From Coprobacillaceae bacterium (lineage in GTDB: Bacteria > Bacillota_I > Bacilli_A > Erysipelotrichales > Coprobacillaceae), in contig OY780959.1 in NCBI GenBank assembly GCA_963675915.1, positions 2,370,001 to 2,402,000 on the forward strand: a DNA stretch of 32,000 nucleotides, given 5' to 3'. Positions 12,793-19,131 of the stretch are shown here, piece after piece; the stretch's first letter is position 1; every line of letters starts with the position of its first letter. The position numbers and the translations under genes were made by a program. The notes under the pieces are model-generated. The model had not been told where the DNA came from and ran no database searches. It saw nothing but the letters and a program-made list of their open reading frames with translations.

Positions 12793-12821
12793 ATTATAAC
12801 AAAAATCCTTTAGCCTGACAA
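12793..12821 (-). promoter_or_regulatory. candidate promoter of the TetR gene
   Basis: On the minus strand: TTGTCA, a 17-nt spacer, then TATAAT. Confidence 0.5.
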
Positions 12822-12848
12822 TGATGCAATTTTAGAGAAAATTTATTG

Positions 12849-12877
12849 TTGACAATTACAAAGGAAGCGCTTATACT
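12849..12877 (+). promoter_or_regulatory. consensus-like sigma-A promoter of the reductase/SDR/GH1/PTS operon
   Basis: TTGACA (12849-12854), a 17-nt spacer, then TATACT (12872-12877). Confidence 0.65.
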
Positions 12878-12892
12878 AGTCCGTAGTTATTC

Positions 12893-12930
12893 GTACTATA
12901 GTGCTAATTGATTTGTACTATAGTGCTAAT
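12893..12930. promoter_or_regulatory. tandem 16-bp direct repeat GTACTATAGTGCTAAT x2 (probable TetR operators)
   Basis: Identical copies at 12893-12908 and 12915-12930, 22 bp start to start. Each contains the near-palindrome GTACTATAGTGC. They lie 16 nt downstream of the -10, within the 5' UTR. Confidence 0.6.
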
Positions 12931-12988
12931 GGGTTGGTTTTGATGTCCAACCTGAACTAGAGCAAATGATTGTGGAGGAAATGCCTGA

Positions 12989-15716: not shown

Positions 15717-15751
15717 GAATAGATAGATAAAAAAATAAGAAGGAGGATGTT

Positions 15752-17167
15752 ATGAATACTACTGCATTTCCAAAAGATTTTTTATGGGGTGGGGCAACCG
15801 CTGCAAATCAAATCGAAGGTGCATACAACAAAGATGGCAAAGGTCTGAGTGTTCAAGATATTCTGCCTAAGGGGGTCTATGGTGGTCCGACCGAAGAACC
15901 GACCGCAGACAACCTGAAACTGGAAGGAATAGATTTCTATCACAAATACGCGGAAGATATCAAACTTTTTGCGGAAATGGGATTTAAAGTTCTAAGAATC
16001 AGCATTGCCTGGTCGAGAATATTTCCTAATGGTGATGAAAAGGAACCTAACGAAGCCGGACTGGAATTTTATGACAAAGTTTTCGAGGAATGTGCAAAGT
16101 ATAAGATAGAACCACTTGTGACTTTGTCGCATTATGAAACACCGTTGCATTTGGGAAAAACCTACAATGGCTGGGTTGATCGTCGGATGATTGGATTCTT
16201 TGAGAACTATGTAAGAACAGTGATGAACCGCTATAAAGACAGCGTCAAATATTGGCTGACATTCAATGAAATCAATTCGATTATTCATGTTCCGATTTTC
16301 CACGGGGTTATGACTCCTAAAGCGGAATTATCGAAAAATGAGTTATATCAGGCAATTCATCATGAATTGGTTGCAAGTGCATTGGCTACCAAAGTGGCCC
16401 ATGAAATCAGCCCTGAAATGAAGGTCGGGTGCATGATTCTAGGAAAACCGGTATATCCGATGACACCACATCCGGATGATATGATCAACATGATTCAATT
16501 CGAACATCGAAATTCATTGTTTACGGATGTTCACGTCAGAGGGAAATACCCTTCATATGCAAAAGGATTCTTTGAGGAAAACAACATCGAATTGGATATT
16601 ACCGAGGAAGATTTGGAAATACTGAAGCATACGGTTGATTTCATTTCATTTAGCTACTATACGAGTCATTGCGATACTGTTATTGAAACAGACAAGGCCC
16701 AAGCAATCAGCAATCTAGTACCGGGTTATAAAAATCCATACTTGAATGAGACTGATTGGGGTTGGCAGATCGATCCTCAGGGATTGCGATATCTGCTTAA
16801 CGTTATGTATGACCGCTACCAGAAGCCATTATTCGTTGTCGAGAACGGGTTGGGTGCTGTAGATGAGTTGGTGGTCGATTGCGAAGGCAATAAAATTGTC
16901 GAAGATGACTATCGAATCCACTATTTGAACGAGCATCTTGTTCAAATGGAGAAAGCCATCAAAGATGGTGTCGAAGTCATGGGTTACACATCATGGGGAT
17001 GTATTGATTGTGTCAGTGCATCAACAGCTCAAATGAAGAAACGTTATGGCTTCATTTATGTTGATCGCCATGATGATGGAAGTGGTACTTTGGAAAGGTA
17101 TAAGAAAAAGTCTTTCTATTGGTATAAAGATATTATTGCAACAAATGGAAGTTCGCTAAAACGCTAA
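15752..17167 (+). CDS. GH1 6-phospho-beta-glucosidase
   Basis: 471 aa. Acid/base TFNEIN and nucleophile VVENGLG. The phosphate-binding tail [12 protein letters not shown] is typical of the 6-phospho-specific GH1 enzymes. Confidence 0.92.
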
Positions 17168-17186
17168 CTAAGGGAGGTTAATAGAT

Positions 17187-19079
17187 ATGGCAGGCAAATA
17201 TGATGCATTAGCAAAATTCATTATTAAAAACGTAGGTGGGAAAGAAAACATCGCTTCTCTTACTCACTGTATTACAAGATTACGATTCAAACTGAAAGAC
17301 GAATCGAAAGCCGATACAGAGGCATTGAAAGGTCAAAAGGGAATTGTAACTGTAATGCAAAGTGCCGGACAATACCAAGTGGTAATCGGGAATCACGTCC
17401 CTGACGTATTCGCTGAAGTTGTAAAAATCGCTGGAATTTCGACTGGAGCAGTAGAAACAACAGAAGAAAAAATGACAATTGGTCAAAAAGCGATTGATAT
17501 AATTTCAGGAACTTTTTCACCGGTACTTGCGGTCCTCGCAGCAACAGGTATGATTAAAGGTTTACTGGGATTATTATCTTATTTCTCATTATTGGATACT
17601 GGAAGTGGTACTTACCAAATCCTTTATATCGCTGCAGACGGATTCTTCCGTTACCTACCGGTATTCTTAGGATTTACCGCAGCAAAAAAATTCAAGTTAA
17701 GTCCGTTTATTGGGATGGCTTTAGGTATTGGATTAATCTACATGGATGACGTAACCAATTTGGCAAGTATGGAACCAATCGGGCAATTGTTTACTGGAAC
17801 CTTCTTTGAAGGTAACGTCTATACGCATTTCCTGGGAATTCCAGTGATGCTTCCACAAGCAGGTTATACTTCATCAGTAGTTCCAGTATTACTGGGAGTT
17901 TTCGCTGCTTCAAAATTGGAAGTTGCACTTAGAAAAATCATTCCTGATGTAATCAAAACTTTCGTTGTACCAATGTTGACTTTAATGATTGTAACACCTT
18001 TGATTTTCATTGTTATCGGGCCGGTTGCAACAATCTTGACAGCTATCGTTGGATCAGTAACTATGTGGGCATATGGTTTGAGTCCGGTTCTGGCTGGAGC
18101 TCTTGTCGGAGGTTTTTGGCAAGTTCTTGTTATCTTCGGTTTGCATTGGGGACTTGTTCCAATTTTCTTATTGAATCTTACAACTTATGGGTATGACTTT
18201 ATTCTTGCACCGTTCTTTGTCGCTTCATTTGCTCAAACAATGGTAATCGTTGCAATCGCAATTAAAACACGTGATAAAAACTTAAGATCAATCTCAATCC
18301 CAATCATTATTTCTGGTTTGTTTGGAGTTACTGAACCGGCAATCTACGGTATTTCATTACCAAGAAAAACTCCGTTTATTATCTCATGTATCGCTTCAGG
18401 TTTAGGGGGTGCTTACTTGGGTCTTGGTGGTATTAAAAGATTCATGGTTGGTGGATATGGTATTTTCGGATTCCCTACATTCATCAATCCGGAAACAAAT
18501 GATGTTTCAAGTATGATGGTTGCTGTTGTTGGATGTATTATTGCAATGGTTGCTGCATTTGTAATGACTATGTTCATTTATAAAGAAGACGACGTAGAGG
18601 AATCAGGAGTTGTAGTTGGAAACACTGACAACAATGTAATAACAAGCCCAATCAAAGGGACAGTGATGGACATTGCAGATGTTCAGGATCAAGCTTTCGC
18701 TTCAGGGGCATTGGGTAAAGGTGTCGCCGTAAATCCTGCTGAGGGTAAAGTTTATGCTCCGGTTGATGGTAAGATTGCGACATTATTCCCAACCAAACAT
18801 GCAATTGGAATTGTTTCAAATGATGGAGCTGAAATTCTGATTCATGTTGGAACGGATACTGTAAATTTACAAGGGAAATATTTCGATGCAAAAGTTCAGC
18901 AAGGTGACATGGTTAAACGTGGGGACCTTTTACTGGAATTCGATTTAGAGGCAATCACTAATGAAGGATATTCATTAATTACCCCGATTGTAATAACTAA
19001 TTCAGATAAATATTCAGATATCGTTGCAAAAACTGATATCGATACACAAATAAGTGAAGAACTGATGGTTCTTGTATAA
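17187..19079 (+). CDS. PTS beta-glucoside-family EIIBCA component
   Basis: 630 aa. EIIB has Cys in CITRLRF. A polytopic EIIC follows. The C-terminal EIIA(Glc)-type domain has HAIGI and LIHVGTDTV histidines. Confidence 0.92.
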
Positions 19080-19094
19080 TTACATGATTTGAGT

Positions 19095-19131
19095 AAACCA
19101 CTACTTTTCCTCGGGAAAGTAGTGGTTTTTT
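19095..19131 (+). terminator. rho-independent terminator of the operon
   Basis: AAACCACTACTTT-cctcggg-AAAGTAGTGGTTT forms a 13-bp stem followed by a T-run. Confidence 0.85.

Follow-up and report, generated by a model that had tools for sequence, protein, structure and literature searches.

An apparent graft of beta-glucoside uptake genes onto a TetR-controlled reductase module in a Coprobacillaceae bacterium

Firmicute loci that combine a bgl-type phosphotransferase system (PTS) with a glycoside hydrolase of family 1 (GH1) are classically controlled by a BglG/LicT antiterminator together with a leader that carries a ribonucleic antiterminator (RAT) sequence and a terminator. The window analysed here, a 32,000-nt stretch of the genome of a Coprobacillaceae bacterium (contig OY780959.1, positions 2,370,001 to 2,402,000), holds such a pair of sugar genes behind a divergent TetR-family repressor, directly 3' of genes for an Fe-S flavin reductase and a short-chain dehydrogenase/reductase (SDR). 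The question that this locus raises is whether uptake, cleavage, and reduction serve one pathway. A first reading made from the sequence alone, hereafter the sequence-only reading, had proposed that they do. We find that the locus reads as a chimera of a TetR-operator-reductase-SDR module known from metagenome-assembled genomes (MAGs) of gut Clostridia and a GH1-EIIBCA pair from a bgl operon, and that it is best understood as a recent graft rather than an old dedicated system.

Layout and control of the operon

The features of the locus, in window coordinates, are as follows.

12144-12755, minus strand: tetR, a TetR-family repressor of 203 aa (PF00440)
12793-12821, minus strand: tetR promoter-like site, TTGTCA-17-TGnTATAAT, 11 of 12 consensus positions plus an extended -10 (a consensus match only)
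12849-12877, plus strand: operon promoter-like site, TTGACA-17-TATACT, 11 of 12 consensus positions
12889-12908: operator 1, a 20-nt quasi-palindrome, ATTCGTACTATAGTGCTAAT, motif kept in orthologous loci
12911-12930: operator 2, a 20-nt quasi-palindrome, ATTTGTACTATAGTGCTAAT, motif kept in orthologous loci
12989-14947, plus strand: putative Fe-S flavin ene/enoate reductase of 652 aa, with an old yellow enzyme (OYE) barrel, a 4Fe-4S site, and an FAD/NAD(P) domain (PF00724, PF07992)
14964-15716, plus strand: classical SDR of 250 aa, probably an NADP(H)-linked ketoreductase (PF00106, PF13561)
15752-17167, plus strand: GH1 enzyme of 471 aa, very probably a 6-phospho-beta-glucosidase (PF00232, match to PDB 4ipl)
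17187-19079, plus strand: beta-glucoside-specific PTS EIIBCA of 630 aa (TIGR01995)
19095-19128, plus strand: intrinsic terminator with a 15-bp stem, a 4-nt loop, and a T-run (sequence scan)

The gaps between the four plus-strand genes in the open reading frame (ORF) list are 16, 35, and 19 nt, and a GGAGG-type ribosome-binding site precedes every start codon of the operon. Both promoter-like sites fall within the 233-nt divergent intergenic region, and a consensus scan ranks them as the two best such sites in 9 kb. The hairpin at 19095 to 19128 is the sole strong terminator that a terminator scan detected 3' of position 12989. The ORF list and the scans therefore bear out the description of four tightly packed genes between one near-consensus promoter and one strong terminator. 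A TetR-gated single transcription unit is the natural reading of this sequence, and the layout suggests that the four genes are cotranscribed.

The regulator matches the TetR helix-turn-helix family PF00440 at 31.6 bits (cutoff, 24). Its presumptive operators begin 12 nt 3' of the operon -10 hexamer, both read ATT(C/T)GTACTATAGTGCTAAT, and the motif has two matches in the 32-kb window, which are the two tandem operators themselves, with 0.00 expected by chance.

Searches for the classical form of control were negative throughout. An Rfam scan of the whole window at gathering thresholds gave zero matches, and hence no known riboswitch or leader; the RAT consensus had 0 matches with up to 3 mismatches allowed; neither the terminator scan nor folding found a leader terminator in the 5' region of the operon; and tblastn with three LicT proteins as queries gave no match near the operon. 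A search with the consensus of the CcpA-binding cre site likewise returned 0 matches, giving no catabolite-repression signal. The 5' untranslated region (12884 to 12995) does fold well (-31.3 kcal/mol, z = -3.76), and its hairpin was considered as an attenuator and rejected, as it merely reflects the two operators pairing together and no U-tract follows it.

The claim that the locus has no PRD antiterminator gene and no leader terminator thus stands as far as LicT, RAT, and leader are concerned, with the qualification that a regulator with PRD domains does exist elsewhere in the window. This sole PRD protein (28092 to 30101, minus strand, 669 aa; HTH_11, Mga, two PRD, and EIIA_2 domains) is a LicR/CelR/Mga-type activator without a CAT RNA-binding domain, lies ~9 kb from the operon, and is divergent from lactose/cellobiose-family EIIB (30118 to 30483) and EIIC (30498 to 31715) genes. 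The PTS locus at 28092 to 31715 shows that the organism uses PTS transport and is unlinked to the TetR operon.

Origin of the parts and a second linkage

Homologues of the reductase were sought among 5.8 billion proteins, with a 98% identical variant (P0001) standing in for the window protein. The relatives comprise one at 98% identity, about a dozen clusters at 74 to 80%, and one at 66%, after which identity drops to ~55%. Genomic contexts were obtained for seven reductase lineages, and the window proteins were mapped by tblastn on all loci, with ~160 loci surveyed in all.

The sister loci are L002 to L005, L006 to L008 (from GTDB: "Candidatus Scatomorpha merdavium," a Clostridiales MAG, and an Oscillospiraceae MAG), and L089/L090. 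Where the reductase is at least 76% identical to that of the window (L002 to L008), the gene order is tetR, a GntP-like permease, a permease-like paralogue, the reductase, and the SDR, and L089/L090, with a reductase at 66%, carry a similar module. A Zn-dependent alcohol dehydrogenase gene often follows the SDR gene in these loci. The SDRs are 72 to 85% identical to the window SDR; their genes lie 3' of the reductase gene in L002 to L008 and, in L089/L090, past the regulator gene on the other strand, two genes 5' of the operon. No PTS or glycosidase gene was found in any of these sister loci, and no CoA ligase or transferase, bai gene, or BaiG-type transporter of the major facilitator superfamily (MFS) in any examined locus. 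The window operon, for its part, carries neither of the two permeases nor the Zn-dependent alcohol dehydrogenase.

The regulatory unit is shared with these relatives. With the divergent TetR of L005 the window TetR shares 54% identity, and with those in the same position in L002, L006, and L008 it shares 34 to 38%. Tandem operators centred on ACTATAGT directly follow the -10 hexamer in every orthologous locus examined (L001, L002, L005, L006, and L008), and in L002, L005, L006, and L008 a TTGACA promoter and then the operators occupy the region from tetR to the first permease gene, with sites reading ATTCGTACTATAGTCCGAAT in L008, TTCGGACTATAGTGCGAA in L006, AATTAGCACTATAGTACGAA in L005, and TATAGTACTATGGTGCTAAT in L002. 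The divergent repressor and tandem operators first noted in the window are therefore not peculiar to it. Because both motif and position are conserved across the sister loci, we take the TetR/operator/promoter unit to be ancestral to the reductase-SDR module; it lies directly 5' of the reductase gene in the window and 5' of the first permease gene in the relatives. L002, L005, L006, and L008 have one more operator motif close to tetR, which suggests that tetR regulates itself there. A further copy was looked for near the tetR promoter of the window (12760 to 12830) and no convincing one was found, so autoregulation may have been lost.

The sugar genes have their nearest relatives in a different kind of operon. 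Outside the species no EIIBCA relative exceeds 61% identity, and the nearest stand at ~60%. Two of the closest, from Fusibacter sp. 3D3 (L171) and a Logan contig (L172), lie in operons that consist of a RAT/terminator leader, GH1, EIIBCA, and LicT, with HPr after one further gene; their GH1 proteins are 69% and their EIIBCA proteins 60% identical to those of the window, in the same GH1-EIIBCA order. These classical bgl operons differ from the window in having a CAT_RBD plus PRD gene and a RAT/terminator leader, whereas in the window the pair forms the 3' half of a TetR operon. Since the nearest relatives share the gene order within RAT-GH1-EIIBCA-LicT operons, the window pair resembles the central part of one such antiterminated operon, grafted 3' of the SDR gene with neither leader nor licT. 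One 61% identical PTS relative (P0124, in L087/L088) is a stand-alone PTS and is uninformative.

The order reductase-SDR-GH1-EIIBCA was found solely in this species, in a 2.57-Mb contig (L001/L086) with proteins 98 to 100% identical to those of the window and the same flanks; a second genome of the species (2.63 Mb) carries an identical PTS protein. A comparison of GC content, GC content at third codon positions (GC3), and codon usage among the four operon genes gave no clear foreign signature and cannot date the graft; the PTS gene has a low GC3, which may merely reflect a membrane protein.

A looser form of the linkage does occur elsewhere. A GTDB scan yielded 77 loci with reductases ~50% identical to that of the window, and in 3 of these 77 the genes for EIIBC, GH1, EIIA, and the reductase lie on one strand, within the following cassettes.

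L069, 5704-11973: RAT/terminator, licT, EIIBC, GH1, EIIA, reductase, terminator
L063, 4598-10873: RAT/terminator, licT, EIIBC, GH1, EIIA, reductase, terminator
L053, 240-6560: RAT/terminator, licT, EIIBC, GH1, EIIA, reductase, terminator

In L069, from an Agathobacter sp. MAG, a RAT-like sequence and a leader terminator are followed by licT (CAT_RBD plus PRD), EIIBC, GH1, EIIA, and the reductase; no gap exceeds ~50 nt, and the one 5' of the reductase gene measures 18 nt. The same five genes, with a RAT of their own and a terminator after the reductase, are present in L053 ("Candidatus Merdibacter merdigallinarum"), where the proteins are 49 to 73% identical to those of L069 and the reductases 73%. 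L063 matches L069 at 93.6% over 6278 nt; the match runs from the promoter/RAT region to the terminator 3' of the reductase gene, with no relationship between the flanks. Because the homology spans exactly the cassette, we regard it as a bounded unit, discrete and probably mobile. The L063 and L069 bins are assigned to different families, and their likeness suggests either horizontal transfer of the whole cassette or a binning error.

The cassette proteins are only distantly related to those of the window (reductase, 50%; GH1, 50%; PTS, 31 to 34%), and a neighbour-joining tree places the cassette reductases far from the window clade. Real RATs were seen in L069, L053, L063, L171, and L172. Because the reductase, GH1, and PTS of the cassette are not orthologous to those of the window, the two assemblies are independent, and the linkage of sugar genes and reductase has arisen at least twice. 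The expectation that the four-gene order would recur in other genomes was thus not borne out beyond this species, but the combination of PTS, GH1, and reductase in one operon does recur, and an independent second case under LicT supports a functional link between these genes.

We also ran a metagenome scan seeded with the L069-type reductase, which gave 79 loci, mostly from the human gut. A group with reductases at 80% has a TetR regulator and the reductase alone, and an abundant group at 70% has an SDR-reductase pair whose SDR is 48 to 49% identical to the window SDR. The latter pair is very often assembled in human gut contigs (L111 to L160; reductase 70% identical to that of L069) and, given this abundance, may merit characterising; in L125 (5643 to 9938) it adjoins a PucR-type regulator. 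A convergent LicT bgl operon lies ~3 kb from the pair in L112, L121, and L125. We judged this proximity coincidental and not a linkage, as genes for an ABC-F ATPase and a DUF4143 protein intervene in L125, the contig examined of the three. No linkage was counted for L079 and L083 either, where the PTS genes are 7 to 9 kb from the reductase. Taken over all these contexts, the reductase, often accompanied by a cognate SDR, comes across as a portable part that is joined to varied uptake and regulatory systems.

Two further features of the sister loci are noted here. In L005 (4171 to 12726) and L089 (1591 to 9947) the genes of two Fe-S flavin reductases are interspersed with those of two permease paralogues; the additional reductase of L005 and L089/L090 scores 447 bits on the BaiCD model (cutoff, 825), and two reductases with an SDR recall BaiH/BaiCD/BaiA or OsrA/OsrB/OsrC. 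Beside the GntP-like permease lies a 438-aa membrane protein (L002 8655 to 9971, with equivalents in L003 to L008 and L089); comparison with Pfam and NCBIfam, relaxed to E = 1, gave no match to it. Judged by eye, it is paralogous to its GntP-like neighbour, and it may represent a branch of these transporters that has gone unrecognised.

Within the window itself, the regions 5177 to 7403 and 26401 to 27999 encode an aldo-keto reductase, two alpha/beta-hydrolases or esterases, and a nitroreductase. The alpha/beta-hydrolase or esterase genes have weak acetyl-xylan or feruloyl-esterase-type matches, and, although the matches are generic, these genes are compatible with life on plant-derived small molecules.

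The reductases and the sugar enzymes

The description of the 652-aa protein as an OYE, 4Fe-4S, and FAD/NAD(P) reductase agrees with its domains and motifs. PF00724 matches residues 10 to 341 (248 bits) and PF07992 residues 389 to 620 (120 bits), and the cysteine motif C347-x2-C350-x3-C354-x12-C367 has all four cysteines invariant in an alignment of 12 clade sequences. The motif has one residue more in its final spacer than the [4Fe-4S] pattern given for the subfamily, CX2CX2-3CX11C (PMC11759058). The HAHCGY motif, with H174, H176, and Y179, is also invariant in this alignment, and by analogy with OYE and FadH these would supply the catalytic histidine pair and the tyrosine proton donor; the C-terminal half has two Rossmann motifs that are invariant in the clade as well. 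The protein thus has the full anatomy of the Fe-S flavoenzyme/2-enoate reductase subfamily, and enoate activity would follow by annotation transfer. The window lineage has 9 specific substitutions at otherwise invariant positions. None of them falls in a catalytic motif and they show no clustering, so the reductase has probably kept its substrate and its job.

Members of this group include the flavonoid enoate reductases of Eubacterium ramulus and Flavonifractor plautii, daidzein reductase, BaiCD/BaiH, BilR, and OsrA/OsrB, and the window reductase falls in no curated subfamily tested. Its best curated-model matches are all below cutoff: the BilR long form (NF045599, 396.7 bits; cutoff, 750), BaiCD (NF041087, 377.1 bits; cutoff, 825), and mycofactocin OYE2 (351 bits; cutoff, 793). 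The best PDB matches, at modest scores, are 2-naphthoyl-CoA reductase (6qkg) and FadH (1ps9). Named relatives at 50 to 55% identity are labelled 2-enoate reductase (one of them "FldZ") or 2,4-dienoyl-CoA reductase. The chemistry of the 2-enoate reductases is reviewed in PMC11759058, and members of the family reduce free enoates, cinnamates, and chalcones (PMC11759058, PMC11572103). The clostridial 2-enoate reductases (EC 1.3.1.31, FldZ type) and the Fcr/ERED enzymes of E. ramulus and F. plautii share the three-cofactor architecture and the cysteine motif; they differ in that no characterised member is close, and the likeness is drawn through the labels of relatives and the architecture.

These results set limits on two analogies in the sequence-only reading. 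Its bile-acid analogy (BaiCD/BaiH) is not sustained, with both the BaiCD and the BilR models failed by a wide margin. The bai operon (BaiCD/BaiH plus BaiA) and OsrABC do resemble the window in that one or more Fe-S flavin reductases and an SDR reduce an enone stepwise, but the bai operon differs in its transporters, regulators, and accessory genes as well as in the failed model.

The equol comparison lacks specific support, since nothing points specifically to the equol pathway and the named relatives of the reductase carry other labels. The equol cluster pairs a reductase of this superfamily, daidzein reductase (DZNR), with an SDR, dihydrodaidzein reductase (DHDR), so that first the C=C and then the C=O of a plant aglycone are reduced, and also needs tetrahydrodaidzein reductase (THDR) and a racemase. 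The window operon has no THDR-like or racemase gene, its SDR is of a sugar-acid or keto type, and its sister loci have anion permeases; the likeness seen is one of gene pairing.

The SDR matches PF00106 and PF13561 at ~207 bits each, and its translation contains the cofactor motif TGASAGLG and the catalytic residues S..YAAAK. After strand 2 it reads ARR; in the coenzyme classification of SDRs, such residues at this point suggest NADP(H), and the enzyme would accordingly be NADP(H)-linked. Its best models are those of NADP-type sugar-acid or keto reductases, all below their cutoffs, and the top NCBIfam match, the gluconate-5-dehydrogenase subfamily model PRK08213, is failed at 254.4 bits (cutoff, 279). 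It is not a recognised DHDR.

For the sugar genes, the domains agree with a beta-glucoside EIIBCA and with a GH1 enzyme that is very probably a 6-phospho-beta-glucosidase. The GH1 protein matches PF00232 at 465 bits, with the acid/base glutamate in TFNEIN and the nucleophile in VVENGLG as read from the translation. It aligns over its full length with the 6-phospho-beta-glucosidase PDB 4ipl (715 bits), including the C-terminal CVSxSTAQxxKRYG segment that carries the phosphate-binding Ser, Lys, and Tyr of phospho-glycosidases. Two curated 6-phospho-beta-glucosidase models are narrowly missed (PRK09593, 629 versus 639 bits; PRK09852, 618 versus 623 bits), and the enzyme is very probably phospho-specific even at 5 to 10 bits below these cutoffs. 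The PTS protein combines PF00367, PF02378, and PF00358 in one chain and passes the beta-glucoside model TIGR01995 (697.1 bits; cutoff, 614.7).

A candidate pathway, its alternatives, and its meaning

We hypothesize that the locus is a chimeric catabolic operon for import of a glucoside, its cleavage, and reduction of the aglycone under TetR control, a proposal for which we consider the case about evenly balanced. The ancestral module would have served a small unsaturated compound, taken up by the GntP-like anion permeases and reduced by the core enzymes. In this species GH1-EIIBCA would have replaced the permeases, attached behind the SDR, with LicT and RAT lost. EIIBCA would import a beta-glucoside conjugate and phosphorylate it at the 6 position, and GH1 would split the phospho-glucoside into glucose-6-phosphate, which would enter glycolysis, and the aglycone. 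The reductase would then saturate an activated C=C bond of the aglycone with NAD(P)H, and the SDR would reduce its carbonyl. The aglycone, its product, or a close derivative would free TetR from the two operators, which lie across the transcription start, and a basal level of uptake and cleavage, or the entry of free aglycone into the cell, would supply this ligand. In this scheme we infer cotranscription, the ligand, the substrate, and the direction and order of the two reductions; the genes and their arrangement, the kept operators, the descent of both halves, and the repeated pairing are what the sequences show. The functional link is favoured because the gain of PTS and GH1 coincides with the loss of both permeases, as in a swap of the uptake route, because the reductase substrate has probably stayed as it was, and because the pairing was selected a second time under another regulator.

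As to the substrate, the GntP-like anion permeases of the sister loci point to a carboxylate-bearing or otherwise anionic unsaturated compound more than to a neutral flavonoid. These permeases, together with the lack of CoA-activating genes, favour a free unsaturated plant acid, lactone, or enone. The window operon probably acts on a beta-glucoside of a plant aryl compound or unsaturated acid, for example a coumarin or hydroxycinnamate glucoside; glucosides of hydroxycinnamate or o-coumarate and coumarin glucosides such as esculin would be our guesses. To our knowledge, the aglycone of esculin is the only one with an activated alkene among those of the classical bgl-PTS substrates. Steroids, bile acids, shikimate, terpene glucosides, and iridoids were considered as substrates too, and we put none of them forward. 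What stands of the proposed single regulon for an aryl, flavonoid, or coumarin glucoside is therefore the linkage, which the second cassette backs; its exact gene order is confined to one species and recent, and neutral flavonoids have become less favoured.

The ligand deserves separate comment. The PDB matches of the regulator, few in number, score 36 bits or less (UidR, 34.7 bits; TtgR and QacR/AcrR types among the relatives), so that no ligand can be deduced from them. An aglycone is nevertheless a more plausible ligand than the glucoside, because orthologous TetR/operator pairs serve modules without any glycosidase; the suggestion that the aglycone is the inducer is in this sense the more reasonable one. 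A loose parallel to the form of control is the gus operon of Enterobacteriaceae, in which a TetR repressor gates uptake and hydrolysis of a glycoside. GusR senses the intact glucuronide, whereas orthologues of the window TetR serve loci without a glycosidase. The gus operon also differs in handling glucuronides, in not being PTS based, and in having no aglycone-modifying enzymes, and the likeness to its regulator (GusR/UidR; PDB 6ayi, 6ayh) is marginal at the score given above.

Among PTS-based systems, Lactobacillus acidophilus has a LicT-EIIABC (LBA0725)-GH1 (LBA0726) locus for salicin, esculin, and amygdalin and exports the aglycone (Theilmann et al. 2017, PMC5698550). It resembles the window in that a bgl-family EII imports and phosphorylates plant beta-glucosides and GH1 frees glucose-6-phosphate and the aglycone inside the cell; it differs in its LicT control and in exporting the aglycone unchanged, where the window has TetR, tandem operators, and two reductases. 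The Agathobacter/Merdibacter cassette comes closer, with a bgl-type PTS, a GH1, and an OYE/4Fe-4S/FAD reductase in one terminator-ended operon, but it has antiterminator control, a separate EIIA, no SDR, and no TetR. We know of no FldZ/Fcr-type enzyme encoded with PTS and GH1 genes. Literature searches, incomplete in coverage, found no description of a bgl PTS/GH1 operon with an enoate-type reductase under either regulator, in keeping with the earlier impression that the architecture is undescribed, and a 2020 survey of Fe-S flavoenzyme clusters (PMC7371122) has no mention of PTS, glycoside(s), or TetR.

Several observations weigh against a shared pathway. The four-gene order is known from two near-identical genomes of one species, so that the fusion itself shows no conservation, and the sister loci use anion permeases, for which the same compound as a PTS-transportable beta-glucoside is not obvious. 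The nearest characterised enzymes are ~50% identical to the reductase or less. A PTS gene was found in the reductase operon of none of the 79 metagenome loci, which makes the cassette rare, and, with bgl operons so common, it would not be absurd for one or two of ~160 loci to lie next to one by chance. Within the operon an internal promoter is possible, and the window showed no EI or HPr gene.

One alternative is an accidental fusion, in which an ordinary GH1-EIIBCA pair for cellobiose or aryl-beta-glucosides would have lost LicT and RAT, landed behind an unrelated TetR-reductase-SDR unit, and been read through with no substrate in common. We consider this unlikely. It accounts for an arrangement confined to one species and for sugar genes that clearly derive from LicT-type operons, and bgl operons are very common in Firmicutes, with a coincidental neighbour at 3 kb even among our own contigs (L112, L121, and L125). 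The reductase family, too, turns up in many unrelated contexts, from TetR-reductase alone to SDR-reductase with a PucR-type regulator, and the Fe-S flavoenzymes of Clostridia have been sorted into 849 gene-cluster families, of which 80 are predicted to be saccharide related (PMC7371122). An accident would, however, hardly be expected to leave junctions as clean as these, with gaps of 35 and 19 nt around the GH1 gene, good ribosome-binding sites, and no remnant of a terminator or RAT, nor does it predict that both permeases should be lost as the PTS was gained. The same pairing has moreover been built into a LicT operon elsewhere, as a bounded cassette kept between genomes whose reductases are 73% identical, and sugar uptake behind a repressor blind to its substrate would be hard to maintain.

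The uptake-and-reduction pathway could also serve detoxification, with the reductase and SDR neutralising reactive aglycones (enones, unsaturated lactones or aldehydes, and quinone-like compounds) and TetR acting as the toxin sensor. TetR regulators typically sense toxic hydrophobic compounds, as the presence of TtgR and QacR/AcrR types among the weak relatives would recall, and OYE-type enzymes and SDRs are generally known to reduce reactive enones and aldehydes. That L. acidophilus exports its aglycones indicates that handling them is a real problem. This purpose overlaps the catabolic proposal and differs from it solely in physiology, but we think it rather improbable: the sister loci actively import their substrate through two dedicated permeases, which would be unexpected for a toxin, and oxygen-sensitive, three-cofactor enzymes of the 2-enoate reductase type are classically catabolic or serve as electron sinks.

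That the reductase and SDR act on steroids, bile acids, or CoA thioesters, as in the BaiCD/BaiH/BaiA, OsrABC, or FadH systems, and have no connection with aglycones is very improbable: this reading has in its favour the common superfamily with its best curated-model and structural matches, the second, more BaiCD-like reductase of L005 and L089, and a reductase-SDR pairing that recalls BaiCD with BaiA and OsrB with OsrC, but the equivalog cutoffs are missed about twofold, the loci lack the CoA-activating, bai, and BaiG-type transporter genes, and GntP-like permeases and a beta-glucoside PTS are unfit for steroids.

Returning to the catabolic proposal, the two assemblies together allow a broader idea, which we put forward more tentatively: gut Firmicutes may have repeatedly built self-contained glycoside cassettes in which a single conjugate yields, through PTS and GH1, glucose-6-phosphate as a fermentable electron donor and, through an Fe-S flavin enoate reductase, the activated C=C bond of the aglycone as the acceptor, the window being the version in which an aglycone-sensing TetR has replaced the sugar-sensing antiterminator. 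In its parts the locus is a species-specific graft of known elements, with sugar-sensing antitermination replaced by the TetR of the reductase module. It exemplifies how the grafting of modules can change regulatory logic, here with a repressor of the aglycone type in place of an antiterminator that senses sugar.

Large amounts of plant glucosides arrive in the colon, and their effects depend on the microbes that deglycosylate them and on the fate of the aglycone. In L. acidophilus, host of the one well-studied PTS/phospho-beta-glucosidase route, the aglycone leaves unaltered, and reduction of aglycones is mostly ascribed to other organisms. If the broader idea is true, reduced phytochemical metabolites in the gut would be made by the same cell that deglycosylates, under control of the aglycone. 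One operon with uptake, cleavage, and reduction would give a direct genetic handle on how a single cell turns a glucoside into a reduced metabolite, and the second cassette, assembled independently, would do likewise under LicT. In gut Clostridia, hundreds of gene-cluster families with Fe-S flavoenzymes are orphans (PMC7371122). For the uncharacterised reductase clade represented here, a TetR with defined operators at 12889 to 12930 makes for a cheap inducer screen that could reveal the substrate, and the two independent cassettes offer a comparison toward the same end.

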